IMG/VR virus record: IMGVR_UViG_3300007735_000799
Coordinates: 55,267-119,266 of that record
Strand: one strand, 5' to 3'
Length of the DNA stretch: 64,000 nt
From: a virus
Under the pieces are notes generated by a model. The model worked only from the letters and a program-made list of their open reading frames with translations. It had not been told where the DNA came from and made no database searches. The position numbers were made by a program, and so were the translations under genes. Below, one piece after another: positions 12,186-42,301 of this stretch (within the stretch, counting starts at the first letter, position 1; every line of letters starts with the position of its first letter).

Positions 12186-13124
12186 TTAAACTGGCAAAAC
12201 TTTAAATGCCTTTTTTGCTATATCAGGACTTGAGAAATATTTGCTGAAGTGTCGCATGAATATTTCTTCATCCTCTTTCTTCCAATCCCAAACGGTTGTG
12301 CGGTTATTTCCTTCAGCCCATTCCGGATCTTCTCCGTATCCTCCTGGTATATTCTGCATCATGGCAACAAATGCTCGCACAGGAATATAAACTTTACAAC
12401 GAAGCGGAGAATTGCTTAAACGAATCACTTCTTCTTCATCACTAATACTTCCCATTACAGCATTCAAAAACGCGCTGCTTGAGTAACGGTTAAACAGAGT
12501 TTCTTGTTTGGTTAGATGTGCTTCCATGATTGCCATAACTCTAGACTTATTGGTTCGGTCTCGCACAAACCTTGAGGATGTTTTAGCAAATGTTTCTGCA
12601 ATGCTAAATGTATATGTCCACGATTGTCCTTCATATCTAGACTTGTAAGTTATATCTGTTATTAGATAATTGCCGCCGCCAACAAACGCAACATTATCAA
12701 ACTTCACATTCTTGAAGTCATCTAATCCCAAGGTAGTTCCGCGATACGCTAAACCATCAAACCAACTCCACGAAGCACGGGACGGACAGGCAATCAAAGA
12801 TTTCAATCCTCGCTTCATTGTGTTCATTTCACTTTGTGAAATATCTGCGTCTACTCCTAGTTTAAAATGCTCTCCAATATTTACTGCCGTCATCCAAATT
12901 TCTTTTGTTATGTCTGGCGCACCATCAGCAAACTTTTTGCGATACTCGTCGTATGCAGTTTTTATTTTATCTGTTTCAATCATATTGTAATCGTAACGAA
13001 CAGTTTCAAATCTTTCATAACAGAAATACACCAACTCTTTTAAAGCGTTGTGATGGGGCTGACGAATCCACCAGCAGATGCCTTCGTTTGTGCTTTCTTG
13101 AAGATAGTCTGAGAAGTCTTTCAT
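12186..13124 (-). CDS. ADP-ribosyltransferase paralog 1 (R-S-ExE)
   Basis: AYRG, YKSRYEGQSWT...AETF, DEEEVIR; N-terminus MKDFSDYLQES. Confidence 0.75.
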   Translation of the reverse strand: MKDFSDYLQESTNEGICWWIRQPHHNALKELVYFCYERFETVRYDYNMIETDKIKTAYDEYRKKFADGAPDITKEIWMTAVNIGEHFKLGVDADISQSEMNTMKRGLKSLIACPSRASWSWFDGLAYRGTTLGLDDFKNVKFDNVAFVGGGNYLITDITYKSRYEGQSWTYTFSIAETFAKTSSRFVRDRTNKSRVMAIMEAHLTKQETLFNRYSSSAFLNAVMGSISDEEEVIRLSNSPLRCKVYIPVRAFVAMMQNIPGGYGEDPEWAEGNNRTTVWDWKKEDEEIFMRHFSKYFSSPDIAKKAFKVLPV

Positions 13125-14410
13125 ACGCGATACTGCCTCCTAGCAATCTTCTCAAACTCTTTCCATACAGGTTGTGTAGTCATCTTTTTTACTGCGTCTT
13201 CGCCTGCAATCTTGGCAAGACGCTGTTGGAAATTTTTCAGGTCATCTGTGGTGGCATTACCTAGTTCTGCGTGTGCCAATTCACCCCAAATGCTTGGTAG
13301 ATTAACATACCCACGAACTGTTATTGGAGTGTTGCTTACACGAAGCACTTCTTGCTCATCAGGATGCACAGACACTTGACGAATCACATCAGGCATTAGG
13401 AAAGTTTCTTGGCGTTTAATAACATGCTCTATTATTAGAGCAACTGTATCGTATGAATTTCCTGGCCCAATGTTTGTGAAATTGTCGGCTACTTCGAAAC
13501 CGTAAGCCCAAGATTGTGCAGGATACTTAGACTTGTAGTTTCCTGCACACACCAAATATTTTCTGCCTTGTATTTCTACAACCTCACCTGTGAATCGGAA
13601 ATTCTGTCTCAGATAACCAGTAGACTTTCGTAATCCTCGCCAAACTTTTTTGTTGTCAAACGAGTAAGTCCAGTTTGCACGATTAGGACACTTTGACATT
13701 TTAACTATTAACGCATCAGAACCATACTTTTCTTCGCCTGATTTATCAAAGTAATCGCATACAGCACGAGTATACTGTAACAGTTCGCTGTCTAACGATG
13801 AATACTTATACTTGGAATTTTTTTTGTCAACTGCTTTAACCCAATTCACAAACTCTTTTTCATTTGGTTGAGACAGCAGTTCGCAAATAGTTGGTTCGGT
13901 TTCAGTTTCTGCGGCTTCGGTTAACTTCATGTAAGGCGTCAAGTCAAGCATAATTACTTTTGGCGTGATGCCGTTCATAAACGCAATGTCCATTCGGGTG
14001 TTGCCTGCCAACACTCGCATTTCGCCTTTAGGAAACTTCACCACGATAGGCATGTCTACCGGCTTGCCTGCTTTTATAAGTTTCTCTAGTTCTTTAAGTG
14101 TGTCTTCGTTTCTAAACTTTGGAAACGAACGATATCCTGAGATAAGGTTAAGCAACTGCTCCATGTTTTTAGTGCGACTACGATTATCAATATTGCGGTC
14201 AACCGCAGCAGATACCTCAACCACAGGAGCGGCTTTTACGGCTTTCACAAATGCCGCTTCGGTTGGAAAAATGTTTCTAGGCAGTTCGTGAATCAGATGT
14301 TTCAGATACTCAATCTGATACTCTTTGCGAATACTAGCATCGCTTGGGCGAACCCAATTGCCTGCTTTCGCTTCAGATAATGTTTCACGCAATTGCCAAT
14401 AGTCTTTCAT
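13121..14410 (-). CDS. ParB/Srx-like domain fused to ADP-ribosyltransferase paralog 2
   Basis: MPIVV...LAGNTRM (ParB/Srx-like); linker KLTEAA; VWRG, YKSKYPAQSWA, DEQEVLR. Confidence 0.72.
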   Translation of the reverse strand: MKDYWQLRETLSEAKAGNWVRPSDASIRKEYQIEYLKHLIHELPRNIFPTEAAFVKAVKAAPVVEVSAAVDRNIDNRSRTKNMEQLLNLISGYRSFPKFRNEDTLKELEKLIKAGKPVDMPIVVKFPKGEMRVLAGNTRMDIAFMNGITPKVIMLDLTPYMKLTEAAETETEPTICELLSQPNEKEFVNWVKAVDKKNSKYKYSSLDSELLQYTRAVCDYFDKSGEEKYGSDALIVKMSKCPNRANWTYSFDNKKVWRGLRKSTGYLRQNFRFTGEVVEIQGRKYLVCAGNYKSKYPAQSWAYGFEVADNFTNIGPGNSYDTVALIIEHVIKRQETFLMPDVIRQVSVHPDEQEVLRVSNTPITVRGYVNLPSIWGELAHAELGNATTDDLKNFQQRLAKIAGEDAVKKMTTQPVWKEFEKIARRQYRV

Positions 14411-15518: not shown

Positions 15519-16463
15519 TTACTTTCTTTTACTAATGATATTAAAGATGTGGTCGGTCTGTTCACCGTTAATGGTTACAGAATCCAACATTTGTCGTGTA
15601 ACGAAGAACTTTGCTTTAATTGGTTCGGTGGAAACGCGAAGCACTTCCTTCTCGTTTAATCCGCCCATGTCTATAGCAGTTTGAATCTTATCAAGCGTGT
15701 TTGGATTAAACAAACAATCTTTTGCAGGAATTACTGCTTGAATAATTACAGGAAGAAATCCTGTTATATTTTTTCCGTATACTTCTTTGTCTGCTCTATC
15801 ATCCCACCGTTCAGGAATTTCTAAATCTAAACCACTCATAGCACCTTCGTGTCCTGATGCAAAACTTCTTGCTGTAATCAGGTCTGTTGTCCATGATTGC
15901 ATAGCCAGTTTACTTTGATAGGTTGCGGTGCATTCTAGTTTACTGCCCCCGCTAGAAACCCGCCACGGCATTTGCTTGAATTGTTTCCAAGAAATTCTCT
16001 TGCCGCGATACAGAGTTCCACCTGCGAATCTTGCCCAATCACCTCGGGTTGAACACGATTTAATGTTACGGAAAACATGCACAACTTCCGACTTGCCACT
16101 ACCCATGAGTTCGTCACCAAACGCTTGTCCAAACACTTCGCGTATCTTATCTAACATTCCATCAAAAGTATACCATCCACGAACCTTGTAACCCGACATA
16201 ATAAAATCATCACTTTGACGAGAAAAAAATCCAGAACCAACATGACGAAGCAAATATCGGAAATCATCAGTATTCAACGAAACTATATCACAAAGGGTTA
16301 CTCCGGTTAAATCAGGAACGCCATTTTCGTCTCGTTTGCCTTTGTTGATCTTCAGAAGTAGTTTTTCATCTGTTGGATTGAATCCTGGAATATCATAATC
16401 ACTTTTCAGAGTTTTCTTCTGAGCAGCGGTTAAGTCTTCTAGTAGTTGCCAGTAGTTTTTCAT
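15519..16463 (-). CDS. ADP-ribosyltransferase paralog 4
   Basis: LYRG, YQSKLAMQSWTT...ARSF, NEKEVLR. Confidence 0.75.
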   Translation of the reverse strand: MKNYWQLLEDLTAAQKKTLKSDYDIPGFNPTDEKLLLKINKGKRDENGVPDLTGVTLCDIVSLNTDDFRYLLRHVGSGFFSRQSDDFIMSGYKVRGWYTFDGMLDKIREVFGQAFGDELMGSGKSEVVHVFRNIKSCSTRGDWARFAGGTLYRGKRISWKQFKQMPWRVSSGGSKLECTATYQSKLAMQSWTTDLITARSFASGHEGAMSGLDLEIPERWDDRADKEVYGKNITGFLPVIIQAVIPAKDCLFNPNTLDKIQTAIDMGGLNEKEVLRVSTEPIKAKFFVTRQMLDSVTINGEQTDHIFNIISKRK

Positions 16464-17236
16464 TTAAGTAAGAAACTTTCCGCTTCTGAACCTCTGTCAA
16501 TATAATGATGCTTTTCTTTTCCTGATGGGGTTATCTCAAGTATGGTAACACTAGTTTTATCTCCCATTACGGATAGAATCTCACGAACCGCTGCTTTAAA
16601 CGCTGCCATGTTTGTGCCTTCTAGACTGCAACTTGCTGATTCAGCACCGTAAACTTTCAACCAGCCTTTATCAAACGCTCGCTTGGCTAGCGGTGGACAA
16701 AGGTCTATGATTTCCCGTTTAATCATTTCTTTAATGCCCGAGGCTTCTATCTTTTCGCCTTTTTCAAGACCTATGGTTCTCTCGTAGTAATCACGCGACC
16801 TTGGATCTAAACCGCCGCTGTTTAATCTCTGTTTTTGAATATACTCATTCAATGCTTGATCCATTTCACTATCAGTAACACCAAACCTCTGAGGATTTTT
16901 CACCACCTGAGTGATGTGATACCCGTCTCCGAGATGTGAAAAAGTGAACGGAGGTTTTACTGCGTGCCACCAGCCTGCACACTCTCGCTTCCACGGAAAC
17001 GGTGGACGATTCAACCCAGACTTTTGTTGCTGTTGAATCTTTTTGAGTGCATTCGCATCACGACGCTGTGCTGCTGCAATAAGTGCTTGACCGCGTGGAC
17101 TTCGTTCAAACTTTAAACGCAACTCACGCTCGCGGGGAGTTTCGTAGTGTCCTCCCTTTGGTTCAAATGCGTTAGGATTAGTGTAGATACCAAGTGCTTC
17201 AGTTAACTCGGATAATAATTGAGATAAGGTTTTCAT
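16460..17236 (-). CDS. Candidate internal head protein
   Basis: Start MKTLSQLLSELTEA; GWW...YH...KGWLKV pattern. Confidence 0.6.
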   Translation of the reverse strand: MKTLSQLLSELTEALGIYTNPNAFEPKGGHYETPRERELRLKFERSPRGQALIAAAQRRDANALKKIQQQQKSGLNRPPFPWKRECAGWWHAVKPPFTFSHLGDGYHITQVVKNPQRFGVTDSEMDQALNEYIQKQRLNSGGLDPRSRDYYERTIGLEKGEKIEASGIKEMIKREIIDLCPPLAKRAFDKGWLKVYGAESASCSLEGTNMAAFKAAVREILSVMGDKTSVTILEITPSGKEKHHYIDRGSEAESFLLK

Positions 17237-17240
17237 AGGT

Positions 17241-17744
17241 TTAGTCCCACAACATATCTTCGCCACGATCTAGTAGAATTCGGCGAGAGGCTTTGTCTAA
17301 TACTTGCAATCCTGTGCCAGCGGCTTTCAGTTCCACTTCTTTGCCAGACATGCTTAGGTAAGTTTCGCGTCCTAACTTCATGGCTTTCTTGACGAACATG
17401 GAACGAGGCTTGCCGTCACGCTCGCGTCCCATGATTTCAATTTTAATGTTTACCGGCTTGATGCTCAAGGTTAAAATCATATCCTTGGCGTTATCAATAG
17501 CAGCCCGGGTCATTTGCCGAGTAGTGGACCACGCCTTTTTGTTTGGCTTGGGAATTACATTTCCCATTGCGTCAGTCTTTCTAGCCTTTAAAGGATTCTG
17601 AGATCCTACAAAGCGTTGCGGATCGTCTAGATTAACTCCGTAACCAATGGTTCCTAAACTTGGGCCTTTGGGAAACTTTGGCTTCTCGGCAAGCAAGCCT
17701 AAAACCGCTTCCGCGTTTTCTAAAATCTCTCGGTAATCGCGCAT
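17241..17744 (-). CDS. Candidate internal head protein
   Basis: MRDYREILENAEA N-terminus; lies within the payload operon. Confidence 0.55.
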   Translation of the reverse strand: MRDYREILENAEAVLGLLAEKPKFPKGPSLGTIGYGVNLDDPQRFVGSQNPLKARKTDAMGNVIPKPNKKAWSTTRQMTRAAIDNAKDMILTLSIKPVNIKIEIMGRERDGKPRSMFVKKAMKLGRETYLSMSGKEVELKAAGTGLQVLDKASRRILLDRGEDMLWD

Positions 17745-17767: not shown

Positions 17768-18487
17768 TTATTTAGGCTTTGTAGTAAACGGGGACGCTTC
17801 ACCCCACCAAGCCAAGGTGCAGTTCGCCATTTCAGGTCGGGGAGAAGGCATTGGATACAGTTTCGCTCCCATGCTACCGGCTAATCGCTTGGCTATGGTA
17901 TTGTAGATTACCGCACGAACCGGTCGAGCGTTCGGCTTTGTGCCCCAAAAGATGCCTTCAGGGTTTTTTTTCTGTTTAAAATCTTTCACAATTTCAATAA
18001 TGGTTCCAAACACTCGGGTGACATGAGCGGTATCCGTTCCGCCTAAATCATCGTCTGTGCCTTGGTCAAAGCCGGAGCCGTTTGTGTCTACATAAGTGCC
18101 GAAGCCTAGTTCCCACATAGACTCAAACACCGGCAAAGCGATTTTAGGTCTGATTTCCGCTGAGAAATTTGCTCTGGCTAAACCACGATTGATTCTTCGC
18201 ATGCCTTCAAAGGCTGTAGTTCCCCGATGCTGAGTAAAGGTGACTACAACGCGCTGACGCAAGCCGGGATTCTCGGCTCGGTGCTGCGTCATTATGCGAT
18301 CTGTGGTGGCTATGGATCGTGGCACACCTGGCGTGAAGTTTGGGCCAGGATCAGGCTGCCAATCTGTACTGCCTGCGGGTTTTATCACATCAAATCGGTA
18401 ATCGTATGTTGCGCCACCTGAAGTGAAAAGCCGCCACGGATAAGATCGTTCAAAGATTTCTGTGATGTAAGATTCAAAGTATTTCAT
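17768..18487 (-). CDS. Candidate internal head protein (paralog of 40902..41402)
   Basis: MKYFESYITEIFERSYP; VFGTIIEIVKDF...P.GI.W...R..IY. Confidence 0.6.
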   Translation of the reverse strand: MKYFESYITEIFERSYPWRLFTSGGATYDYRFDVIKPAGSTDWQPDPGPNFTPGVPRSIATTDRIMTQHRAENPGLRQRVVVTFTQHRGTTAFEGMRRINRGLARANFSAEIRPKIALPVFESMWELGFGTYVDTNGSGFDQGTDDDLGGTDTAHVTRVFGTIIEIVKDFKQKKNPEGIFWGTKPNARPVRAVIYNTIAKRLAGSMGAKLYPMPSPRPEMANCTLAWWGEASPFTTKPK

Positions 18488-18494: not shown

Positions 18495-18501
18495 TATTTA
18501 G
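18495..18501 (-). promoter_or_regulatory. T4-like late promoter box
   Basis: CTAAATA 7 nt upstream of ATG 18487, heading the payload operon. Confidence 0.6.
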
Positions 18502-18526
18502 AAAAAACAAACCTCCTTGCGGAGGT
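18502..18526 (-). terminator. Rho-independent terminator
   Basis: ACCUCC-GCAA-GGAGGU followed by UUGUUUUUU. Confidence 0.75.
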
Positions 18527-19824: not shown

Positions 19825-20286
19825 TCAGAAGGGAGGCAGCGTATCGGTACGATCATCAGGATCCTCGGGAATATCCTGGTCATCAATATCATCCGTCATG
19901 CCTTCAATCTGCTTGTTCATATCTTGAATCATCTGTTCAATCTTATCAATCAGATCGTCCTTCATGTTGGTTGTACCGTCCCAAGGAAAGAAAAATACTT
20001 CGTTTACTCCCTTGCTAGGCTTTGGCTTGGCTTCCTTGATGATGTTTCCACCCTTGAAAATCTTGCCAGTACTTTCCGAGTAGATGGTTTCAATCTCTTC
20101 AGGAGTCTTAGCCTTGATGATGCGAGCCGTGGCTTCCATCATGCAGGTATCGGTATTAGTCATAGCCACACCTGCTCGCTGAAGCACTACACTCAGATGA
20201 TCGTGACTCAAGCAAACCTGATAAAGTTTACTTGCAAGCAGTTTGTTTTGCATTTCCAAACGACGCACACGCTTTTCAGTATCCAT
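19825..20286 (-). CDS. Hypothetical coiled-coil protein with acidic tail
   Basis: 153-aa ORF with AAGGAA RBS. Confidence 0.6.
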   Translation of the reverse strand: MDTEKRVRRLEMQNKLLASKLYQVCLSHDHLSVVLQRAGVAMTNTDTCMMEATARIIKAKTPEEIETIYSESTGKIFKGGNIIKEAKPKPSKGVNEVFFFPWDGTTNMKDDLIDKIEQMIQDMNKQIEGMTDDIDDQDIPEDPDDRTDTLPPF

Positions 20287-20288
20287 TT

Positions 20289-20696
20289 TTAATTCCTTTC
20301 GTGAATCCAGCGAAGGGCTTCAGCAAACGCTGCTGATTCCTGTTCAAGTGTCCAATCCAAGTCTCGTGTCCACCATTTAACCAGCCAGTATTTATGAGTT
20401 TCTCCCAGATGGCGGGTAATAGTGGTGTTATATCGGGCTGAGGGGAATTTTGAATTCGGGTCAGCAGGTGTACATTGAACCATTACCTTCTCTCCCCGAC
20501 CCCACGGTGAAATCACCAAGGCTCCTTCGGTATGAGCCAGTAATTCAAGTTCAGGATCTGTGGACTCTACCTCTACACACCACAAGGCAGGAGTTAACTC
20601 GTGGCACTCGGCTCGGGTGACGGGAACTGACGCACGGGTGATGTTAAGGTTTACTTGCACTAGACGCCTTTTGTTGGAAATGTTGATGCAGACCAC
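20289..20696 (-). CDS. Hypothetical protein
   Basis: 135-aa ORF in operon. Confidence 0.5.
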   Translation of the reverse strand: MVCINISNKRRLVQVNLNITRASVPVTRAECHELTPALWCVEVESTDPELELLAHTEGALVISPWGRGEKVMVQCTPADPNSKFPSARYNTTITRHLGETHKYWLVKWWTRDLDWTLEQESAAFAEALRWIHERN

Positions 20697-20949
20697 TTAA
20701 CTCATCAGGACGCAAGATTCTGCAACACCAATACGGTGAGTTGTAAGAATCCATAGCAGCGTTCCATGCACGACGCAATTTCTCTCGCGTGGGATACGGA
20801 ATGGTTCGCTCCACGGCAGTCAAGGAATTTGTTTTAAAAATTGACATAACAAACCGTTGCTGTCTAGGACGGGTTTGAATTCGGAACTGACGCACAAACT
20901 GATCGCCGGTGGGATTGTGAACCGCAATCATGTAGTAGTATTCAATCAT
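20644..20949 (-). CDS. Hypothetical protein
   Basis: 101-aa ORF, ATGA coupling. Confidence 0.5.
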   Translation of the reverse strand: MIEYYYMIAVHNPTGDQFVRQFRIQTRPRQQRFVMSIFKTNSLTAVERTIPYPTREKLRRAWNAAMDSYNSPYWCCRILRPDELSGLHQHFQQKASSASKP

Positions 20950-21197
20950 GTGGTATACACAACATCGTTAAATTTCCTGTCAATAATTGCGCCTTGCGAC
21001 ACAATTAAATCCCAAAGTTTCCGAGCGGGTTCTCGTGTGTGAATAGCACACTGACGAGTTTTAATTAGATTACCCACCTCCCATGAAATCACGGTAATCT
21101 CGTTCGGATCAGCCTCGGATTGTTCAAATCGCCAGTTGTACAGCACACCTTGCGACCGATGCTCTAACGCCCAAATGTTTCGCTTGAAAAGCCTCAC
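20946..21197 (-). CDS. Small protein, W-x-x-L-x-x-x-G helix family
   Basis: REPARKLWDLIVSQGA. Confidence 0.6.
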   Translation of the reverse strand: MRLFKRNIWALEHRSQGVLYNWRFEQSEADPNEITVISWEVGNLIKTRQCAIHTREPARKLWDLIVSQGAIIDRKFNDVVYTT

Positions 21198-23578: not shown

Positions 23579-23584
23579 GCCTTT

Positions 23585-23613
23585 AGTATAGCCTAGAAAG
23601 GGGTTTATGGCAA
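23585..23613 (-). promoter_or_regulatory. sigma70-type promoter, leaderless
   Basis: TTGCCA-17-TATACT-6 nt-ATG(23578). Confidence 0.85.
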
Positions 23614-23925
23614 GTCTATAGGGCGAAAAACGGGGGCCAAAATGCCGATTTTCTCAAATTTTTACCTAAAGTCCGATAACTATACCCCCGTTATTTCATC
23701 AAAAACAGGGCCCTATTACCCGGTAAAGGCCCCCGTGGCAAGGGGCCTACTTATCAAGAATTAAGGTTAAATCTTGAATCCTAAAAAGAACAACCCCTGG
23801 ATTCAAGGTCCAGGGGAGTTCCAAAGGGGGAAGTTTTTCAGTAGCCGAACTGCGGGATGTGGTGGGCGACCACAGGATTCATTTCAATTATACGCCCACC
23901 ACACCCCCACAGGTTAACCACCAAC

Positions 23926-24231
23926 TCAGGCCGAGTAGGTGTAGTAGTTCGGGTAGCCAGCGCGGCGCAGGGTGTTGCGACGGAACGAAGCGCGGTGAGC
24001 CGACTTCTCCTTCAGCGACACCTTCTGATCCCACGCAAAGGTACGGCTCTCGCCGCACTCAAAGCGAACGCGCACCGTGCCCTTGCTAGCGTTGCGAGTG
24101 ATGCTCTCAACAAACAGGCTCGGCTCGCCACGCAGAAGGAACTCATCGCCCTCCAGCATGTTCTGAGCAGCGACGCGGATGCGAGAGGCGATCTTGACAT
24201 TACGACCGTTCGTGGTCATGGTTGCAGACAT
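23926..24231 (-). CDS. Small basic SH3-like protein
   Basis: GGAG RBS; LEGDEF...VRVRFECG pattern. Confidence 0.55.
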   Translation of the reverse strand: MSATMTTNGRNVKIASRIRVAAQNMLEGDEFLLRGEPSLFVESITRNASKGTVRVRFECGESRTFAWDQKVSLKEKSAHRASFRRNTLRRAGYPNYYTYSA

Positions 24232-24534
24232 AGTGACTCCTTAAGTGAATGCGCGAGTGTTTACATTAACTCGCTAGGTTTTGAAAATCCTTAGTGATGA
24301 TTTCTCACCACTAAGGGGTGTGCAGCAGGAGCAAATATACGGCAGAGGGTTTCGCATCATGCTGCTGAGTGCTACTCGCCTTGAGTTCTTGATCCGACGA
24401 CCCGAATTTTAACTCAGTAAATTATATTATTCATGGTTCGTATGTTCCGTTAGGGAAAATCCACCTGTCCTGTTTCCAAGACAGGTGGGGGTGCGACTCA
24501 GATGCCTCACAGGAGTCGCCACTGTCCCTCTACA

Positions 24535-24846: not shown

Positions 24847-24857
24847 TTGACTCCTTT

Positions 24858-24885
24858 ATTATACCTGATTTCAGGTGAGATGCAA
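24858..24885 (-). promoter_or_regulatory. sigma70-type promoter
   Basis: TTGCAT-16-TATAAT, followed by AAAGGAG RBS. Confidence 0.7.
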
Positions 24886-24925
24886 GAGGCTAGGACTGAT
24901 TTTGCCTCAGATTCTTTTTTTAAAT

Positions 24926-32113: not shown

Positions 32114-33709
32114 TTAAACACCGATTGCTCCACCACTACTTATGATACCATCTATAACTCCAGGCAAACTGCTAAGAGAGGAAGCAAATGCTTCGTAAAT
32201 ATCTCCAAAATTACAAGGAATAAGTTCGGGATCGGGATGCCAACCACAAGCACATCTGTGAGAGTGTACAAAAACACCATACGAAGTCATAACTTGACAT
32301 GTATTAGCGTGTTTATTAGCGGGTGTATTAGCGGGTGTATCCCCCGTACAACCCGGACCACAAACTGTCCAAGTATTGATAGCGTATGATGATGGAGGAT
32401 TCACATCGCCGTTAACTAAACCACATTTTGTACAATCGGGTCCTGGTGCACTTCCTCCGTAACCGCTTCTTGGCGGGCAATTTTTCTTAAATCCATTTTG
32501 TCCAGGCGTTGCTGCAACATTAGTATTCAGGTAATTTTCATTTATATTATCGTAATAAGTTGGAATATACTTGTTGCCCATTAAAAGAGTTAATCCAACT
32601 CCTTGAACGCAAGAACCACTACCATCAGAACCTGATGAAGAATTTCCACTGCAACCATCTACATCTTTGTCACAACAGCCACTTTTTATTGCGTCTTCCA
32701 TATCGTTATAGTACTGCTCGGCGGCTGTATATCTTTCTATTTGCTCGGCATTACGAACAGTTGTTGTCCAATTTTCACATTTTTGATTTAAACATACAAC
32801 TAAATTCGCTAGTGATCCTAAAAGGATAGCGAGAGCAACATAGGGAACTGCTCTACCAGTTGCTAGTAAAAGTGTTCTTAAATTACCAATTGTGGAACCC
32901 ACTAAACCAACAAAAATAACACCAAAGGTTTTAAGTGCTCCTCTTATTCCTCCAGAGAATTTTGAGAAATTTGCTCTAATGCTTTCTTTGATGTTTTTTA
33001 ATTCGTGTTGAACCAAAGTGCTAAAAGAAGTTATGTTTCTTTTGGGTAGTGTTAACAGATATCTTAGTTTGTTTTCAATTTCTCCTTTTAGAAGCCTTAA
33101 CGCATCTTTTTCTGGATTTGTAAGTTTTCTGTTTTTCGTAGGATGCCAACCACTAAACAACATTTCTTCTATTACTTTAAGTTTTTCTCTTTGACCTAGT
33201 ATTTGCCTATCAAGATTCTCATTAAAAAATATATTTTCCAGCATTTCCTTTGTTGTAAGAGCCTTAATATTGTTTATTCTTTCAACAATCCAAGTGCTAG
33301 CACTTCCAAGAGCAACAGATAAATCTATTAGGTAAGTAAAAATAAGAGCAATACCAAATATTTTCATCAAAAAAGAAATCCAGTCTTCCAGACAGTCTAA
33401 TGCACCATATATAAAGTCTTGTGCCGCTTTTGTAATTTTACTGTTTACGGCTCCTAATCTTTTTTCAAAGTTACAATAAATTTCATTAAAAGTATCCGCA
33501 CAGTCTTTGCTTATGGTGTCGGCATTTTCTCCGATAATTGTAGTAACAGAATCTAAACTTTTACCCACATAAAGAGGAAGTTTGTTTATTGGCATGGAAT
33601 AAGGATATTCCGCGCCTTTAAAATATACAGTAGACAACAACATTCCACTTTCATAGTTTAATCCTGTCGGAATGACATTGGTATATAAAAATTGTTCAAT
33701 TCGTCCCAT
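32114..33709 (-). CDS. Cys-rich/hydrophobic paralog A of four-gene array
   Basis: Start MGRIEQFLYTN aligns with the other three; hydrophobic central helices; SGCC-GS linker-VQGVGLTLLMGNKYIPTYYDNIN core. Confidence 0.8.
   Translation of the reverse strand: MGRIEQFLYTNVIPTGLNYESGMLLSTVYFKGAEYPYSMPINKLPLYVGKSLDSVTTIIGENADTISKDCADTFNEIYCNFEKRLGAVNSKITKAAQDFIYGALDCLEDWISFLMKIFGIALIFTYLIDLSVALGSASTWIVERINNIKALTTKEMLENIFFNENLDRQILGQREKLKVIEEMLFSGWHPTKNRKLTNPEKDALRLLKGEIENKLRYLLTLPKRNITSFSTLVQHELKNIKESIRANFSKFSGGIRGALKTFGVIFVGLVGSTIGNLRTLLLATGRAVPYVALAILLGSLANLVVCLNQKCENWTTTVRNAEQIERYTAAEQYYNDMEDAIKSGCCDKDVDGCSGNSSSGSDGSGSCVQGVGLTLLMGNKYIPTYYDNINENYLNTNVAATPGQNGFKKNCPPRSGYGGSAPGPDCTKCGLVNGDVNPPSSYAINTWTVCGPGCTGDTPANTPANKHANTCQVMTSYGVFVHSHRCACGWHPDPELIPCNFGDIYEAFASSLSSLPGVIDGIISSGGAIGV
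32540..32607. repeat. 68-nt identical block, copy A
   Basis: atttatattatcgtaataagttggaatatacttgttgcccattaaaagagttaatccaactccttgaa; also at 34173-34240, 35827-35894, 37423-37490. Confidence 0.95.
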
Positions 33710-33731
33710 ATGAGTGTCCCGTTTCTTATGT

Positions 33732-35477
33732 TTACATTCCGCCATAGCCCACAGATCCTGGTCCGTTTCGGGATAACCAGTCACCAATATAGGATGCAAA
33801 ATCTGTCATTCCTTGTTTAAACAACGAAAGACCATCTGAAAGAAGGTTTCCTATTTCGTATGGTGCTGGAGGGTGTTCTACATGTCCGAAGTAGCCTCCT
33901 TCGTTAGCCCAACCCGTTTTATCGGGGTATCCACAAGCGCATTCAGGCGACGGCACTGTTAAAGACCCAAAACCCAGAGAAATTTGTTTAGTACACCCAT
34001 TCCAAGGATTGTTGTTTGGGTATGCTCGGAACTCACCACTGTCGTCAGGATCTATAATTTTTCCGTATTTAGTACAATCAGGGCCACCAATGCTTCCTGG
34101 TTTTGGAGGACAATTTGGTTTCCAACCGTTTACTCCAGGCGTTGCTGCAACATTAGTATTCAGGTAATTTTTATTTATATTATCGTAATAAGTTGGAATA
34201 TACTTGTTGCCCATTAAAAGAGTTAATCCAACTCCTTGAACGCAAGAACCACTGCCGCTGCCGAAACCACTGCCACCACCACTGCCGCCATTGCAGTCTC
34301 CGCTACCTTTATCACAGCAGCCACTTTTTATCAGATCATTGATTTCTTTTTCGTATCTAACTTCAGCACAAAATATACTATCAGGGTAATTTTTGCATGC
34401 GTTTTCTCTATCTGGTCCTAAATAATTTCCTCTTCCAACCGCTTGATCTATAGCAGATTGCCAACGACGATTGGCCTTGTCGATATTGTCTACTAGTTTT
34501 TGATAAGAGTTTAAAAGTGCTTGGACTAGTAGATACATCAAATAAACATCTAGCACATTGATAAGTAGTTTAATAGTCAACTTTAATACTAGCCAAAAGA
34601 CTTGAAGAACTGTCTTAAATCCTGATAGAATTTTTGTTATTATATTTATACTTACACTGCCTTTTCTTGCCTTTTTAACCCAATCTTTAGATAACTGTGC
34701 TGCGGAAGGTGAACTGTTTCCCCAAGTGGCAACTGCGGGAAATCTTGAAACAATATCTCTTATGAGAGAGTTAAGAATTGCTTGTCGTAAACGAAGTCTG
34801 TTTAATTCATCAAGTAATTGTGATCTTTTTGCATCGGTCATGTTAGTTCTAACAGACCGCCAATCAGGAACAGTACCTCCAGTACCACCAAGCAGGAGTA
34901 TTATTTCACTCATACGCTTTTGATTGTTTTTTAATTCTGTCGTATATGCTACCCATTCTGCTTTCATTTGACTATACTGCTGATACAAGCCAGTTGAGAT
35001 GTCTGTACGAACTACAACACCAGCGGCAACAAGAGCAGCATACTCTTCAGGAGTATTGAATGCTTCGGCAAATTTATCAGTCAAAATTGCTGGTATGTTA
35101 AAAACAGTATATAATGCAGTTGCTTCCCCCAACAGACTACCGTATTCATACAGACTATCAATAATATCATCATACCAGTTGGAATATGCGTTCCTAATTT
35201 GTATGTTAGAGGTTGCTAATGATACTTCTAATTTACGAAAGACATTATGGAAGTTATTCAAACATTCTTGAGATACATCGTCAGGATTGCCAGTCAGCAT
35301 TTTTGTTAAAGAGTCTTTTGATTTACCAACATATAAAGGTAAATTGTTGGGAAGAATTAAGTATGGATACTCAGAGCCCTCAGTTTGTACCAAAGACCTT
35401 AAAATATCAGTTTGATAATTTAATCCTGTTGGTATGTTGTTTGTGTATAAAAAATGTTCAATTCTGTTAGATTGCAT
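33732..35477 (-). CDS. Paralog B of four-gene array
   Basis: Same N-terminal and core motifs. Confidence 0.8.
   Translation of the reverse strand: MQSNRIEHFLYTNNIPTGLNYQTDILRSLVQTEGSEYPYLILPNNLPLYVGKSKDSLTKMLTGNPDDVSQECLNNFHNVFRKLEVSLATSNIQIRNAYSNWYDDIIDSLYEYGSLLGEATALYTVFNIPAILTDKFAEAFNTPEEYAALVAAGVVVRTDISTGLYQQYSQMKAEWVAYTTELKNNQKRMSEIILLLGGTGGTVPDWRSVRTNMTDAKRSQLLDELNRLRLRQAILNSLIRDIVSRFPAVATWGNSSPSAAQLSKDWVKKARKGSVSINIITKILSGFKTVLQVFWLVLKLTIKLLINVLDVYLMYLLVQALLNSYQKLVDNIDKANRRWQSAIDQAVGRGNYLGPDRENACKNYPDSIFCAEVRYEKEINDLIKSGCCDKGSGDCNGGSGGGSGFGSGSGSCVQGVGLTLLMGNKYIPTYYDNINKNYLNTNVAATPGVNGWKPNCPPKPGSIGGPDCTKYGKIIDPDDSGEFRAYPNNNPWNGCTKQISLGFGSLTVPSPECACGYPDKTGWANEGGYFGHVEHPPAPYEIGNLLSDGLSLFKQGMTDFASYIGDWLSRNGPGSVGYGGM
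34173..34240. repeat. 68-nt identical block, copy B
   Basis: Identical to copy A. Confidence 0.95.
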
Positions 35478-35487
35478 TTAAATTCCG

Positions 35488-36975
35488 TTATCTATCACCT
35501 ATTGCTCCACCTGTGTCTAAAACTCCGTCTATAATACCAGGAATACTTCTAACCAAAGTTAAAATCCCACCAAGTGCTGAATCAAGAATATCCTTTAAAT
35601 CACATGGATCTAATGATGGTTCCTTTTTCCATCCACACGCACAGGTATGATTAGGAATCGGAATTCCTAATGAAGAAGTTATCGGTTTATCCTTACACTT
35701 TTCCCATTTATTATCATCAGGAGTTCTAGTTAATCCACAGGTTAGACAATTAAATTGTGGAGGACAATTTGGTTTCCAACCGTTTACTCCAGGCGTTGCT
35801 TCAACACTAGTATTCAAGTAATTTTCATTTATATTATCGTAATAAGTTGGAATATACTTGTTGCCCATTAAAAGAGTTAATCCAACTCCTTGAATACCAG
35901 AACCACTGCCACTACCGTTATCACAGCAACCTGATTTAAATATTGCTTCCATAGTGTCATAGTATAGGATTGCTGCGTTAGATCTGTCTATCTGTTCAAG
36001 ATCTCGAATTTTTGTTAATCTTTTTTCACAAGCGGCTGTAAAACATTGGTACAGTTTTGTATTAGCATATATCAATACTGATAAAGCGACCCAAGGAAGT
36101 AATCGTGCTAATCCCGCCGCCAAAGTACCAAGTAATGTTTTAATTTTTGAAAAAAATGTACTAATAAATACTTTCGCTTTGTTTAAAACTCCGGAAACTC
36201 CTGAAGTGCCACTTTTTGTGTACTGTTTAACTAGTCTTTCAATTTCTTGTGCTTCTCGCTCTAATTCGGCAGTTATATAGTTTAGCGGACGAAGTTGTTG
36301 TCTCAAATTTCGTAATTCAACGATCAATTCTTCTCTAAACTTAACGAGAACCCGGCGAACAAGCGGTCCTTCGGGCTTATGACCGTTACGACCAACCAAC
36401 TGACCTGTAATTTCTTCAATAGTGTCCTCTAGATATTCGATTCGATTTTTAAGTGCATCATTGAACTGTTGATTTGCTGCGGTTTGCTTTCCAATTGCTT
36501 CTTTATGTTTTGCTATTCTTGCCGTCAGCCAGGCTGGAATAGTAGCAGTAATTCCTGATTCTAATCCAGATTCAAGGATATATTCAAATGCTTCTGATAA
36601 TAAATTTATTCCTAGAAGTGCGCCATAAGTACGAGCCCAAGTTAAAAGACAATTCATAATATCGTCAACCCAGTTTTCATCCGCTTTATCAATTGAATAT
36701 TGTATTGATTCTAAATTTTTTTCAAACCCACAATAATTTTGATTAAATTTTTCTTGGCATTCTGTGGATATAGAGTCACTATCAATACCACTCATATTTT
36801 TTGTAAGAGAGTCTCTACTTTTTCCAACATAATTTGGCAGATTAAAAATGTCTATATGAGGATATTCCGCGCCTTTAAAATATACAGTAGACAACAACAT
36901 TCCACTTTCATAGTTTAATCCTGTGGGAATAGCATTTTGATATAAAAATAACTGAATTCTATTATTGATTATCAT
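35488..36975 (-). CDS. Paralog C of four-gene array
   Basis: Same N-terminal and core motifs. Confidence 0.8.
   Translation of the reverse strand: MIINNRIQLFLYQNAIPTGLNYESGMLLSTVYFKGAEYPHIDIFNLPNYVGKSRDSLTKNMSGIDSDSISTECQEKFNQNYCGFEKNLESIQYSIDKADENWVDDIMNCLLTWARTYGALLGINLLSEAFEYILESGLESGITATIPAWLTARIAKHKEAIGKQTAANQQFNDALKNRIEYLEDTIEEITGQLVGRNGHKPEGPLVRRVLVKFREELIVELRNLRQQLRPLNYITAELEREAQEIERLVKQYTKSGTSGVSGVLNKAKVFISTFFSKIKTLLGTLAAGLARLLPWVALSVLIYANTKLYQCFTAACEKRLTKIRDLEQIDRSNAAILYYDTMEAIFKSGCCDNGSGSGSGIQGVGLTLLMGNKYIPTYYDNINENYLNTSVEATPGVNGWKPNCPPQFNCLTCGLTRTPDDNKWEKCKDKPITSSLGIPIPNHTCACGWKKEPSLDPCDLKDILDSALGGILTLVRSIPGIIDGVLDTGGAIGDR
35827..35894. repeat. 68-nt identical block, copy C
   Basis: Identical to copy A. 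Confidence 0.95.
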
Positions 36976-37014
36976 GGTTGATCCTCCTGCAACTACTATA
37001 TCTGGAATTATTCA

Positions 37015-38754
37015 TTATTCTCCTCCTGTAACTACTATATCTGGAATTATTGTCCTGACATAATCAATAAGCCCTTGGTGAAGACTTTCAAATCCTTGAT
37101 AAAAAGTTGATACAAAATCGCAAGGACTAACGGCTGGCTTGTTTGGACGAGGCCAACCACAGGCACATGTGTGGTTTTGAACAGATACTACCGGACTATT
37201 TGGATCCGTTGTATTTCCCACAATAGTTACCACAGGATCAGTACAAATGCTCCATGTATTTTTATCATAAACCGTCCCCGACGAGGAGTTCGTTTCGTCT
37301 GCTACTTTGGTTTTACATCTAACGCAATTAGCAGAATAAGGTGAACCAGGCATAGGCGGGCAATTTGGCTTAAATTCGTATTTTCCTATCACCGATTCTT
37401 CATTCGTATTCAGGTAATTTTCATTTATATTATCGTAATAAGTTGGAATATACTTGTTGCCCATTAAAAGAGTTAATCCAACTCCTTGAACGCAAGAACC
37501 ACTGCCGCTACCGCTGTTTGATCCACCATTGCATCCTCCGCTACCTTTATCACAGCAGCCACTATTTAATATATTTTGAAGACTCTCATAATATTCCTTA
37601 GCGGCTTCTGCTCTTTGATTCTCTGCCGAACGAACCGTTCTTTCCCATTTTGCACATGCTTGTGATATTTGTTGTTTTAGATTTCCCAACCCTGCAATTA
37701 ATGCTGATACCGCATAAATTCCAGCAGCAACAATAATAACACTCAATGCTATCAAAGTTAATTTTAATGCTATAATAAACGCTCCAACTGCTGCTCCAAG
37801 TAAAGAAAAAAGTTTAAGCCATTCCTCCGCTGTTGGAAGATAAACAGACCCTCGTCTCCAAAAATTTTCTCCGGCAAAATAAGTGTCGCTCTTCCTAGCC
37901 ATCAGTGTTTTAATAAGAAGATTTATAGTATTTCTAAAATCTGCCGTAATCGACCCTATTGTTCCAGGACCACCGAACAACTGTGGATTATTTTTTACTA
38001 TACTTAAAAGTTCAGCAGCGGTTCCTCTTATAGTATCTCTCATTATATTCAGTGTTGCTCCAAGTCTGTTTGCTTGAGCGCGCAATATTTTAAGTTCTTT
38101 ATCAATATCAAAGAGGACACTTTGCTGGCTCATCTGTCTTCGAACTGCTTCCAATTGAGCAATTCTCTTTCTTGTTTTCATAAATTCAGCGTTTGTCTTT
38201 TGAAATTGTATATCTAAGTTCAACAAGTCTTCCAAATATTCTTGGGCTTGTTGAAATATTGGATCATCTCCTTGAAAACCACCCGCAAATCCTACTGCGA
38301 GTATATAATTCGGATCAGTTTTAATATCAAAACCGTCTTCGCCGACTGGAGTAGTTCCAGCAAGAGAATTTATAAAATTTAAATATAATTCTGGAAGTGG
38401 AAATATATCTCTTAAAATGCCAACCCAATCTACCAATGCACCGCTAATATCCTTAACAAATGTATCTCTTGCGTCTATGATTTTTTTGTTTATACCAGCC
38501 AATTTATATTCAAAATTGCAATAAGTGTTTTCGAAGTCATTCAAACATGCTTGAGATACCTCGTCAGGATTGCTAGTCAGCATTTGTGTTAAAGAATCTT
38601 TTGATTTACCAACATAACTAGGCAGTTCAGGTGGTAAAAATGGGTACTCTGCTCCCTCGTGATACACCAAAGACCGCAACATCGCTGTTTCATAATTTAA
38701 CCCTTTTGGGTGATTATTGGTGTAAATAAAGTGTTGAATTCTGTTAAATTGCAT
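37015..38754 (-). CDS. Paralog D of four-gene array
   Basis: Same motifs; CTAAATA upstream (about 38791-38797). Confidence 0.8.
   Translation of the reverse strand: MQFNRIQHFIYTNNHPKGLNYETAMLRSLVYHEGAEYPFLPPELPSYVGKSKDSLTQMLTSNPDEVSQACLNDFENTYCNFEYKLAGINKKIIDARDTFVKDISGALVDWVGILRDIFPLPELYLNFINSLAGTTPVGEDGFDIKTDPNYILAVGFAGGFQGDDPIFQQAQEYLEDLLNLDIQFQKTNAEFMKTRKRIAQLEAVRRQMSQQSVLFDIDKELKILRAQANRLGATLNIMRDTIRGTAAELLSIVKNNPQLFGGPGTIGSITADFRNTINLLIKTLMARKSDTYFAGENFWRRGSVYLPTAEEWLKLFSLLGAAVGAFIIALKLTLIALSVIIVAAGIYAVSALIAGLGNLKQQISQACAKWERTVRSAENQRAEAAKEYYESLQNILNSGCCDKGSGGCNGGSNSGSGSGSCVQGVGLTLLMGNKYIPTYYDNINENYLNTNEESVIGKYEFKPNCPPMPGSPYSANCVRCKTKVADETNSSSGTVYDKNTWSICTDPVVTIVGNTTDPNSPVVSVQNHTCACGWPRPNKPAVSPCDFVSTFYQGFESLHQGLIDYVRTIIPDIVVTGGE
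37423..37490. repeat. 68-nt identical block, copy D
   Basis: Identical to copy A. Confidence 0.95.
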
Positions 38755-38815
38755 TTGTCCCCCAATTGATTTTAATTTTTTTACTGTTAATATTTAGGTT
38801 TTTGCCTATATTGTG

Positions 38816-39942: not shown

Positions 39943-40905
39943 TTAGGTGTTTAAGAGTGCTTCCATCGGTATGCCACCTGGAGCATCCGACCCGAAATCG
40001 TATAGGATATAGGTGGCTGTTATAGGTTGAGCGGATATCCGAACTGTTTCTCGCTCACGAGTATTTTTAGTAGACAGTTTCAGAGTCAACTTGATTTTGT
40101 CGCTAGCATCAGGATTAAACAAGAATTCTTTATCGTTGGTGCGATACTCTATGGTTACAGGCAGCACGGTATCTGTCACGGTTGCTCCGGCTCCTGATTT
40201 AATTCCTCGTTTCAACAACTCTACAAACTTGGCTCTTTCTACAGGTTCGTCGCCAGGATACTGTGGTTTATCAAACGGCAAGGCTCCTAGTTTAAGGGCT
40301 TTTTTAATTTGACTTTCCAAGTCTTCAGAACGCATTTTAGCAAACTCTAAAGCCTTTTGATAGTTGTAACTCCAAGACTGTAGGGGATACTGACTTTTGT
40401 ATGGAGCAGTGCAAACCCAAGATTTGCCTTGTTGTTTCCACTTACCTAACTTGTTTAGTTCTGCCAACGACATGGCTTTGCCACGGTATATCAGTTGTCC
40501 TGCTTTAGGCAGCATCCACGATGATTTGTTTTGACAGTTAATCAAGTCACGGAAAAACGGGTACACTTGCTGCTTCTGCTCAGGAGTGGCAGTCATAAGA
40601 CGATCACCAAAAAAGTCTTCTAGGTTTCGTCTAACATTATTGGTGTAATGCAGCAACTGTAGGATTTGAAAATTGTCTATTTGCTTCAACAGTTCATCGG
40701 TATTACCAAACTCAAATAGTCTTGGTGCTCCACGAACTTCACCACCAAAACCTTTCAGCAAGGCTAGAGCATCGTCTAGTGTTAAAGAAGCAAACACGCA
40801 CGGCGAAATAGGCGCACCTGATTTCAAGTATGGAATAACCTTTTCCAACACTCGGTTGGTTTGTGCAACAGACGCGGCTTCGTTGAATACTTGAAAGTCT
40901 TTCAT
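39943..40905 (-). CDS. ADP-ribosyltransferase paralog 5
   Basis: IYRG, YKSQYPLQSWS...ALEF, RERETVR; MKDFQVFNEAA. Confidence 0.72.
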   Translation of the reverse strand: MKDFQVFNEAASVAQTNRVLEKVIPYLKSGAPISPCVFASLTLDDALALLKGFGGEVRGAPRLFEFGNTDELLKQIDNFQILQLLHYTNNVRRNLEDFFGDRLMTATPEQKQQVYPFFRDLINCQNKSSWMLPKAGQLIYRGKAMSLAELNKLGKWKQQGKSWVCTAPYKSQYPLQSWSYNYQKALEFAKMRSEDLESQIKKALKLGALPFDKPQYPGDEPVERAKFVELLKRGIKSGAGATVTDTVLPVTIEYRTNDKEFLFNPDASDKIKLTLKLSTKNTRERETVRISAQPITATYILYDFGSDAPGGIPMEALLNT

Positions 40906-41402
40906 TTCTTTACTATGGTAAACAATTCTCTGGTGTTTGGAAAGTTAATGTTAACTGTAGGCATTTCTTTTCTGCCTTCTAGTTTGTATCCGTGTGCTTC
41001 AGCGTATCGTTTAATCAAAGCCATGTAGAGTTTAACGCGAGAACCACTGGTATACGACAAGGTTGTAGCATTTATCTCACTCTTGGCTGCAATGAAACTT
41101 ATATCTTGCGGCTTATACTTTTGTAGGAATCGTTTGAATCCGTCTAATACTGAAGCAAATACTTGAGCGGCTTTTCCTTCGCCTGTTAAAGCGGTTGAAC
41201 CGTTTCGTGAAAAAGTGCAATCCCATGAATCAGGTGTAGGAGTTGATAGTCGGGCAAAATACACAACAACAAACTGCTCTTTGCCGTTTTCCATCCACTT
41301 GTAAGAATACTTGGCTTCATCCGTTCCTTCTCTTTGCAAATGGATGGGAAACGGTTTGTCAAACAGTTCAGTAAGATGTGTCTTGAATGATTTCACAGCC
41401 AA
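40902..41402 (-). CDS. Candidate internal head protein (paralog of 17768..18487)
   Basis: VKSFKTHLTELFDKPFP; TGEGKAAQVFASV...SRVKLY. Confidence 0.65.
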   Translation of the reverse strand: MAVKSFKTHLTELFDKPFPIHLQREGTDEAKYSYKWMENGKEQFVVVYFARLSTPTPDSWDCTFSRNGSTALTGEGKAAQVFASVLDGFKRFLQKYKPQDISFIAAKSEINATTLSYTSGSRVKLYMALIKRYAEAHGYKLEGRKEMPTVNINFPNTRELFTIVKK

Positions 41403-42301
41403 CTTTGTTTCTTTAATAGGGTTTTGAATTTAGGATGATTTGCAATCTGTTTAGCAGCAGTTGTTCCTAGTATTGTAGCCAATCGCTTTTCCGCATATTC
41501 TGTCACCAGTCTGATTTGTTCTTTTTCTGAATCTATGTTTTCTAGTTTTTTCAGATAGTCTCTGCTCATAGTCTGCATTTCTTGTTCAACAAAATTGTCT
41601 AATTGCACATACATCTTTACTGGCGTTGGAACATTGCTTACTCGTATAATTTCATCTTCGCCGTATGAACCTAAAGTGTTGGAAATCTCGGGCGACAAAA
41701 AAGTGTTTTGTTTAGTTACATTGGTTTCCATAATCACGCCTATGCCACCAGCACTTGAACCGTATTGGTCGGATGTGAAACTCATAGACACTTCAAAATC
41801 TTTAGCCCATGATTGTGCCGCGTATTTGCTTTTGTAAACTCCGTTGGCTACAGCAAAAAATGCATCTTTCTTTTCCACAACCTCGCCTGTGAATTTCAAG
41901 CCTTTAATCCAATCGCGGGACTTGAACAAACCACGATAAACTTTGCCTGAGTAACCTGCCCATGCTGCTTTACCAGAACACGATGCCATCTTTACAATCT
42001 TAGGCATGAACGGTGCTTTTGCCCCACCTTGTGATTCAAACCAAGAATTCATTGCAAAAATGTATTCTATCAATTGCTTGTATGCTGCTTGTTTGTCGGG
42101 AGTAAAAGTTTGATTTAAGGCTTTTGCCATTAACTGATATAGTTTATTGATACTTGTTTTACGAGCATCATAATATCCCTCTGTGCCGTTACCAACAGCA
42201 GTATACAAATCTATAAGACGGTCTGGTGACGAGTCCGACATTAGTTCACAAATGGTGGGAACGCCAGCGGCTTCGGTAAGATGTGTCTTGAATGATTTCA
42301 C
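41393..42301 (-). CDS. ADP-ribosyltransferase paralog 6
   Basis: VYRG, YKSKYAAQSWA...SMSF, GEDEIIR; MKSFKTHLTEAA. Confidence 0.75.
   Translation of the reverse strand: MKSFKTHLTEAAGVPTICELMSDSSPDRLIDLYTAVGNGTEGYYDARKTSINKLYQLMAKALNQTFTPDKQAAYKQLIEYIFAMNSWFESQGGAKAPFMPKIVKMASCSGKAAWAGYSGKVYRGLFKSRDWIKGLKFTGEVVEKKDAFFAVANGVYKSKYAAQSWAKDFEVSMSFTSDQYGSSAGGIGVIMETNVTKQNTFLSPEISNTLGSYGEDEIIRVSNVPTPVKMYVQLDNFVEQEMQTMSRDYLKKLENIDSEKEQIRLVTEYAEKRLATILGTTAAKQIANHPKFKTLLKKQSWL

Follow-up and report, generated by a model that had tools for sequence, protein, structure and literature searches.

The window analyzed here is a 64,000-nucleotide stretch of DNA, positions 55,267 to 119,266 and hence the right-hand 64 kb of the single 119,266-bp IMG/VR viral contig IMGVR_UViG_3300007735_000799 (CheckV completeness ~52%). 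Six minus-strand genes in this window, arranged in two clusters, encode paralogous proteins (P0001 to P0006, Table 1) that carry the Arg, Ser and Glu-x-Glu (R-S-ExE) motifs of ADP-ribosyltransferases (ARTs), together with an N-terminal leader resembling the capsid-targeting sequence (CTS) of the T4 internal proteins (IPs). We consider it probable that the six are active mono-ADP-ribosyltransferases which are made late, packaged into the phage head, cleaved by a gp21-type protease and injected, there to modify different host macromolecules. The contig encodes a gp46-like recombination nuclease whose top match among 3,882 phage records is the counterpart in Synechococcus phage S-RIM2 (45% identity), as well as gp47-like, helicase, CobS-like and CobT-like genes. 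Judged by these genes, the source is therefore a distant, uncultured T4-type myovirus.

Conserved motifs and predicted fold of the six paralogs

The original prediction, made from the DNA alone, was that the window contains six paralogous arginine-type ARTs. All six open reading frames (ORFs) are present where it placed them, lie on the minus strand and translate without stops, and each of the six carries the motifs [YWS]-R-G, Y-x-S-x4-Q-S-W and E-x-E in the proposed order. Their paralogy is likewise borne out. The proteins share 20-25% pairwise identity, align with 17 invariant columns (which include R-G, Y-x-S, Q-S-W, F, E-x-E, R-x-S and P) and match the family profile at E values of 1e-44 to 4e-66. 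Exactly these six contig ORFs matched the profile, the next best scoring no better than E 0.04. Outside the shared motifs the paralogs diverge. The variable N-terminal helical domains that had been proposed stand insofar as the N-terminal regions are unlike in length and content, and variability is also found in the inserts between Ser and ExE, which span 51-107 residues and are longest in P0005 (107). P0003 further contains a Ser/Lys-rich low-complexity stretch and P0006 a C-terminal helical extension. Both the N-terminal variation and the Ser-ExE inserts could tune the choice of target.

The six belong to a much larger set of metagenomic proteins. A word-indexed search returned 32 relatives, and when 1.84 billion representatives were searched exhaustively with a profile, 360 clusters (counted at 50% identity) were matched at E <=0.001, 125 of them at E <=1e-10. 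In an alignment of 120 diverse members, with a mean column identity of ~7%, only the Arg of the R-G motif (R153 in P0004) and the second Glu of ExE (E273) were invariant; G154, Y182, Q189, S190, W191, A198, F201, E271 and R276 were conserved in at least 90% of the members. A second alignment with P0006 as its head gave the same conservation pattern. The residues that had been singled out as the catalytic set, R-S-ExE, are thus the most conserved positions across 120 diverged sequences, as would be expected of residues that carry out catalysis. Folds that have gone dead usually lose their catalytic residues. Since the Arg and second Glu never vary, and the Ser and first Glu are kept in at least 90% of so divergent a set, we regard as very improbable the alternative that the six are catalytically dead ART-fold internal head proteins, which would act as binding decoys or as cargo with a structural or DNA-condensing role. 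In its favor, catalysis by this family is so far a sequence- and model-based prediction, and T4 IPII and IPIII are abundant internal head proteins for which a review names no enzymatic role (PMC9026906).

The assignment to the ART fold was checked by structure search, using AlphaFold2 models built with family alignments for two paralogs, P0004 (predicted local distance difference test, pLDDT, 85.4; predicted template modeling score, pTM, 0.78) and P0006 (pLDDT 90.4, pTM 0.87). When these were compared with structure representatives by VIA-align, both match lists consisted almost wholly of ADP-ribosyltransferases. The best match of either model was the Vis toxin (4xzj), with a Z score of 6.8 over 149 residues for P0004 and 7.0 over 146 residues for P0006. 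The lists also hold TreX, Tre1, an ART-ARH effector, HopU1, C3bot2, C3stau2, the iota-like CPILE-a and C2-I; Certhrax, VIP2, SpvB, ExoS, Scabin, CARDS toxin, Arr, Tpt1 and PARPs; and the pertussis, cholera, heat-labile and diphtheria toxins. The non-ART matches of P0006 were confined to its C-terminal helical extension (residues 234-302). We base the assignment on the make-up of these lists, reproduced by two paralogs that are 22% identical, rather than on single Z values. Foldseek gave no match in the PDB at E <=0.001 for either model; the assignment also draws on its probabilities, which for P0006 were 0.96 for Vis and 0.80 for cholera toxin A1. Against the predicted viral structures of BFVD it returned 11 matches at E <=0.001. 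Those with a probability of 1.0 include head-morphogenesis and portal ART fusions, the S-PM2 arginine ADP-ribosyltransferase scored 0.97, and proteins annotated as minor-capsid are also in the list.

The first core strand carries the Arg in both models (residues 148-158 in P0004, 119-127 in P0006). The Q-S-W-[TSA] motif forms a strand followed by a helix (188-192 and 195-202 in P0004, 163-166 and 169-173 in P0006), and ExE follows a loop and opens a strand that starts at the second Glu. This order of Arg, Ser and ExE strands is canonical for the R-S-E clade, and the wording of the Ser motif, Q-S-W-[TSA], is a variant (S-W-T) of the S-T-S type. Taken together, the models support a split beta-sheet core with an N-terminal helical lobe, that is, the ART fold of the R-S-E clade.

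A weak sequence link to the T4 Mod enzymes

We compared the family with the ModA, ModB, Alt, IPI, IPII and IPIII sequences taken from the T4 record. Alignment of the family profile with single sequences by hhalign gave probabilities of 6% for ModA, 21% for ModB and 0.1% for Alt. An eight-sequence ModA/ModB alignment, used in place of the single sequences, was matched with a probability of 69.9% (E 4.1e-5) over 73 columns, which cover the Arg-to-Ser/helix region only. In this alignment the family R-G falls on ModB R73-G74, S190 on S99, A198 on A107 and F201 on F110, and the Mod alignment shows no variation at the equivalents of ModB R73, G74, S99, A107 and F110. The catalytic Arg of ModB is R73, and activity is lost in the R73A, G74A double mutant (PMC10468400). 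The suggested kinship with the T4 Mod-class enzymes is weak, but its register is correct, the family Arg falling on ModB R73. Precomputed Pfam annotation placed PF26816.1 on all 6 of 6 ModB homologs and was blank for 32 of 32 relatives of the ART-fold family. Because the Arg-Ser region aligns but the ExE region does not, and because PF26816 is blank, the family is best called a distant relative of the Mod family, judged by its sequences, and not a member of it.

Other sequence resources contain little of the family. None of the 32 metagenomic relatives carries a Pfam domain or name, and searches with PHROGs and with a Pfam copy lacking PF26816 gave no match to the six proteins. Four of the 120 aligned members matched four PHROGs of unknown function. 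Among 50,697 GenBank phage records no match was found to the array (megablast) or to five family members (tblastn), and the T4 and S-RIM2 genomes gave no match to the family profile. By these searches, the family is large, previously unannotated and without a Pfam model, and its members are seen in metagenomes only.

It is established for the R-S-E clade that ExE, rather than QxE, is typical of arginine-specific protein ARTs. The six proteins all have ExE, and so diversified a set of paralogs is easier to reconcile with several macromolecular targets than with a single small substrate. For these reasons we think it unlikely that they are packaged ART-fold enzymes with a non-arginine chemistry, such as ADP-ribosylation of nucleic acids or small molecules, attachment of NAD-capped RNA as by ModB, or hydrolysis of NAD+. 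In favor of such a chemistry, R-S-ExE enzymes include DNA-guanine modifiers, among them Scabin, which is present in the VIA-align lists; Vis, the best structural match, was crystallized with agmatine (entry 4xzk); and ModB, the closest sequence relative, also RNAylates (PMC10468400).

A leader of the T4 internal-protein type

T4 IPII and IPIII begin with MKTYQEFIAE and IPI with MKTFKEF. In T4 these ten CTS residues are enough for a foreign protein to be loaded into the head; targeting involves positions 4 and 7, and cleavage by gp21 positions 8 and 10 (PMC9026906). We searched the 167 ORFs of the contig with a strict leader pattern, for which a rough estimate from residue frequencies gives a chance expectation well below one ORF. 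Ten ORFs fit, five of them being ARTs. A capsid-targeting-like N-terminus had been claimed for each paralog; the claim is upheld for five of the six, whose leaders have the form M/V-K-x-[FY]-x(2,3)-[LF]-x-E, and P0003 departs from it by a Lys at the cut-site Glu. The other five strict-pattern ORFs (17768-18487, 17241-17744, 42423-42836, 2297-2611 and 6193-6765) are unrelated to the ARTs, and with corrected starts 16460-17236 and 40902-41396 also fit. At least six non-homologous ORFs near the ARTs bear the leader. Pfam searches of the leader-tagged non-ART ORFs gave nothing convincing, with one sub-threshold Topoisom_bac match.

Like the T4 IPs (MKTYQEFIAE/A, where the slash marks the cut), the leaders have Lys at position 2, an aromatic residue at 4, a hydrophobic residue at position 7 or 8 and Glu as the ninth or tenth residue. 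Also like the CTS of T4-like phages, the leader occurs on many unrelated, fast-evolving small proteins (PMC9026906). Unlike the T4 IPs, which are small and basic, the cargo here is a family of enzymes, and several leaders have 9 residues instead of 10. Leaders of the type MK[ST]F...[LI]xE are found far from the ART clusters as well, in the window at 2297-2611 (-), 6193-6765 (+) and 50196-50885 (+), and outside it at contig positions 8553-9182 (-) and 9161-9421 (-); those tested had no Pfam match. These distant leader-bearing ORFs lie partly on the opposite strand, and their presence suggests that the putative head-cargo repertoire extends beyond the two clusters. Over their first 12 bases, the sequences that encode the leaders of 41393-42301, 40902-41396 and 42423-42836 are near-identical.

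One paralog joins two leader-tagged proteins. In L005, the closest relative of the contig, the counterpart of P0002 consists of two separate genes (L005:8323-10004), of which P0002 is an in-frame fusion. The first L005 gene encodes a leader-tagged protein of 295 aa whose residues 1-172 are 81% identical to P0002 1-170. The second encodes a leader-tagged ART of 265 aa that is 53% identical to P0002 154-421, and its leader, MKDFIDYLQE/A, aligns to an internal ..YMKLTE/A of P0002. The N-terminal domain of P0002 (residues 1-165) is itself leader-tagged and possibly has ParB_N-like character, which we mention as a lead only. Since the join falls exactly at the old leader and keeps its L-x-E site, the prohead protease could separate the two halves of P0002 at ..YMKLTE/A. 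The two-domain architecture is a small-scale version of a phage polyvalent protein. A broader and more tentative extension, which we hold as possible although somewhat doubtful, is that the leader-tagged clusters are exchangeable cargo, in which the CTS segment would act both as packaging and cleavage signal and as a joint for swaps and fusions. The P0002 site would then release two effectors, and the six co-injected ARTs would, within seconds of the DNA entering the cell, disable several separate host targets, for example defence proteins.

Gene clusters, late-type signals and relatives

The six genes are distributed over two clusters. Cluster 1 runs from 18487 to 10889 and comprises nine genes of one orientation that overlap or lie no more than 25 nt apart, four of the ARTs standing in tandem. 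Cluster 2, from 43180 to 39943, has five genes, of which the first (42833-43180) is untagged and the rest are two ARTs and two further ORFs with a leader.

Table 1 Coordinates of the ART-fold paralogs, neighboring genes and putative signals in the window.
Feature	Position	Strand	Length	Leader	Motifs or remarks
P0001	12186..13124	-	312 aa	MKDFSDYLQE	YRG R128; S168; EEE E230-x-E232
P0002	13121..14410	-	429 aa	MKDYWQLRE	WRG R258; S300; EQE E352-x-E354
P0003	14407..15516	-	369 aa	VKDYWQLRK	SRG R204; S239; ERE E324-x-E326
P0004	15519..16463	-	314 aa	MKNYWQLLE	YRG R153; S190; EKE E271-x-E273
P0005	39943..40905	-	320 aa	MKDFQVFNE	YRG R141; S177; ERE E284-x-E286
P0006	41393..42301	-	302 aa	VKSFKTHLTE	YRG R123; S164; EDE E215-x-E217
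Leader-tagged non-ART ORF	17768..18487	-	239 aa	MKYFESYITE	First gene of cluster 1
Leader-tagged non-ART ORF	17241..17744	-	167 aa	MRDYREILE	
Leader-tagged non-ART ORF	16460..17266	-		MKTLSQLLSE	Start probably ATG at 17236, as in ortholog L005:5444-6232
Last gene of cluster 1	10889..12172	-	427 aa		phrog_22045 (unknown function)
Leader-tagged non-ART ORF	40902..41402	-			Between P0006 and P0005; matches phrog_16075 and phrog_6387 (unknown function)
Leader-tagged non-ART ORF	42423..42836	-	137 aa	MKSFTTHLAE	Upstream of P0006
Terminator-like hairpin (18526-18511), then CTAAATA (18501-18495)	18495..18526	-			8 nt upstream of the first start of cluster 1
Terminator-like hairpin (43237-43214), then CTAAATA (43205-43199)	43199..43237	-			19 nt upstream of the start at 43180 (cluster 2)

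Start sites within the clusters deserve some correction. The ORF between P0006 and P0005 probably starts at a GTG at 41396, which yields the leader VKSFKTHLTE, identical to that of P0006. The L005 ortholog of the last gene of cluster 1 starts with MKTLTGLLGE, and an internal start here would give MNKFTSFIHTKFLTE. The leader of the ORF at 16460-17266 had suggested a seventh family member, which hmmsearch ruled out. At most junctions within both clusters the start and stop codons overlap (ATGA or GTGA, for example at 41393-41396), suggesting from the sequence that translation may be coupled.

The two clusters had been taken for late operons, and the signals in front of them agree with this. Each follows a terminator-like hairpin and the sequence CTAAATA, which is the late-promoter core of the T4-like phage Aeh1 (PMC1524935); a second CTAAATA is at 17769-17775, and in all the motif is found 8-37 nt upstream of the cluster starts. 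Of the 15 copies in the window, 13 are on the coding (minus) strand, and 8 of these 13 lie <=45 nt upstream of starts, where 4.9% of positions are located. Sigma-70-like promoters were not enriched in either cluster. The T4 consensus late promoter TATAAATA was also considered and set aside; it is not enriched and none is found upstream of the clusters, and CTAAATA fits instead. The arrangement of these motifs supports, and does not prove, late expression of the ART clusters. A near-consensus sigma-70-type promoter at 10677-10705 (-) (TTGACA, 17 nt, TAGAAT; 11/12) stands immediately downstream of cluster 1, ahead of the gene at 9756-10670, in contrast with the CTAAATA of the cargo clusters.

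A search of IMG/VR with the six-sequence family alignment identified 11 related loci, and 5 of these records were searched over their whole length. The two closest relatives (39% and 38% complete) have a syntenic tandem array of the ART-fold family. The near-complete relatives G003 and G005 (93% and 98%) each encode ART-fold family members together with a Peptidase_S77 (gp21-type) gene above the Pfam cut-off, and the family member of G003 has the N-terminus MQSFLAHITE.

These data bear on the possibility that the six are real ART enzymes which are not packaged, but act late in the producing cell, the shared N-terminus being a translation-initiation element or a cassette recombination joint. 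The leader does coincide with boundaries of gene fusion or exchange, as at the P0002 junction, head genes and the protease were not found in the contig, and the nearest sequence relatives, T4 ModA and ModB, are not packaged according to the annotation of the T4 record. However, the leader ends in an [LI]-x-E prohead-protease site, as do those of the T4 internal proteins (PMC9026906), and it is also borne by unrelated proteins. The relatives with the family encode a gp21-type protease, and the clusters bear late-type signals and not sigma-70-like promoters. On this evidence we judge unpackaged enzymes to be distinctly unlikely.

Proposed mechanism and its relation to other packaged ARTs

From the predicted fold, the conserved motifs, the leader and the way the operons are laid out we infer the following course of events. 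The six genes would encode active mono-ADP-ribosyltransferases of the R-S-ExE clade, distantly akin to T4 ModA and ModB and, by their ExE motif, with arginine as the putative acceptor. Each protein would be made late, carrying an N-terminal CTS of ~10 residues of the T4 internal-protein type, and this leader would take it into the prohead core. A gp21-type prohead protease may then cut after the [LIF]-x-E that ends the leader, leaving the mature enzymes in the filled head, from which they would be ejected along with the DNA. In the new host cell they would use host NAD+ to modify different host macromolecules, the N-terminal domain and the Ser-ExE insert of each paralog directing it to a different target. 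No Macro or ARH hydrolase domain is encoded across the 119-kb contig, which covers ~52% of the genome, in searches whose two controls both gave matches, so that the remark that the window has no cognate ADP-ribosylhydrolase holds and extends to the whole contig.

Several observations weigh against this course of events or its premises. The VIA-align Z scores of ~7 are middling by the calibration of the tool itself. PDB sequence searches with P0004 alone and with profiles of 6 and 120 sequences returned nothing relevant, and Pfam searches of the 120 members gave scattered chance matches and no family match, so that no curated ART family is recognized by sequence. The ExE region did not align to the ExE of ModB, even with the greedy setting of hhalign, which gained no confident columns, and Alt did not align to the family at all by this method. 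As regards packaging, neither a gp21 nor a gp23 gene was found in the contig, as would be expected if the structural module sits in the missing half of the genome. The strict T4-type leader is present in 39 of 152 family representatives, and a looser pattern in 53 of 152; in many others an M-K/R start is combined with a hydrophobic residue and a Glu early in the sequence. In P0003 a Lys occupies the place expected for the cut-site Glu, which is present in the ortholog of a relative. In T4, Asp at the cut position of the CTS blocks processing and keeps targeting (PMC9026906); thus, P0003 may be loaded uncut, or may be cut at V-K-E17. Finally, CTAAATA is not enriched in total (15 found, 10 expected), and it also precedes the gene beside the gp46-like nuclease gene, so that it is maybe not strictly late.

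To our knowledge, the one worked-out case of a head-loaded, injected phage enzyme was for a long time T4 Alt. Packaged Alt, the CTS and hypervariable CTS-bearing internal proteins are already established (PMC9026906). Alt is an R-S-ExE ART like the proteins described here, is carried in the T4-type head and is delivered with the DNA (PMC9026906, PMC9503650). Its N-terminal propeptide also ends in [LI]-x-E (T4 Alt begins with MELITE), and Alt is processed by gp21. Unlike Alt, which is a single-copy protein of 682 aa, the six proteins have 302-429 aa and a leader of the IPII/IPIII type. By analogy, the six proteins most likely work like T4 Alt. ModA and ModB (T4, Mod family PF26816) resemble them as small R-S-ExE ARTs and are the sole family with a sequence-profile link; unlike the six, they have no CTS, and the T4 record does not describe them as packaged.

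Comparisons beyond T4 point to a shared fold and a shared logic. For Vis of Vibrio splendidus and the C3/VIP2-like toxins, the match covers both the helical lobe and the split beta-sheet core. Identity to them is 11-19%, Q-S-W-[TSA] here stands against S-T-S, and phage cargo against secreted toxins. Phage MuF, portal and minor-capsid ART fusions have in common with the present proteins the logic of an ART loaded into the capsid (PMC9503650), but the loading proposed here relies on a cleavable 10-residue tag instead of a structural fusion partner. A survey of 21,191 viral proteomes reported that ARTs are often packaged in myovirus heads, chiefly members of the R-S-E clade's Alt/VIP2 and Mod families, its packaging inference being drawn from fusions to MuF or portal proteins, gene neighborhood and Alt-like genomic context (PMC9503650). 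The array is thus an extension of a known strategy, that of T4 Alt, head-packaged phage ARTs being a published theme (PMC9503650). In the literature searched we found no description of CTS-tagged, Mod-like ART arrays. What is new here is a large Pfam-less ART family coupled to a CTS of the internal-protein type, in six diverged copies in half a genome. If the proposed mechanism is correct, T4-like environmental phages would inject a panel of different ADP-ribosylating enzymes. Some of the hypervariable internal proteins, most of which have no assigned role, would thereby gain a concrete function, and the panel would be a natural set of enzymes, probably differing in acceptor specificity, with which to study early host takeover and counter-defence.

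Other features of the window

Positions 20000-28000 of the window form a block with a G+C content of 52-56%, against 36-45% in the rest of the genome. The block contains the CobT-like gene (phrog_459, 21194-23578) and the gene for the CobS-like ATPase (phrog_249, 26016-27296), and the ~2.4-kb stretch between them (23579-26015) holds no ORFs but short ones on the plus strand.

Between the two ART clusters, at 32114-38754 (-), there are four large paralogous ORFs of 561, 581, 495 and 579 aa, none of which has a PHROG match. Three of them (33732-38754) start with M..NRI..F.Y.N..P.GLNY, and a CTAAATA at 38791-38797 precedes the first. A metallophosphoesterase gene (phrog_547) lies ~1 kb past the four-ART cluster in L005 (L005:13361-13924). 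In the present phage it is found at window positions 43812-44378, 31 kb from the four-ART cluster and adjoining the second cluster. This displacement indicates that, compared with L005, the inter-cluster region has been inserted or rearranged.

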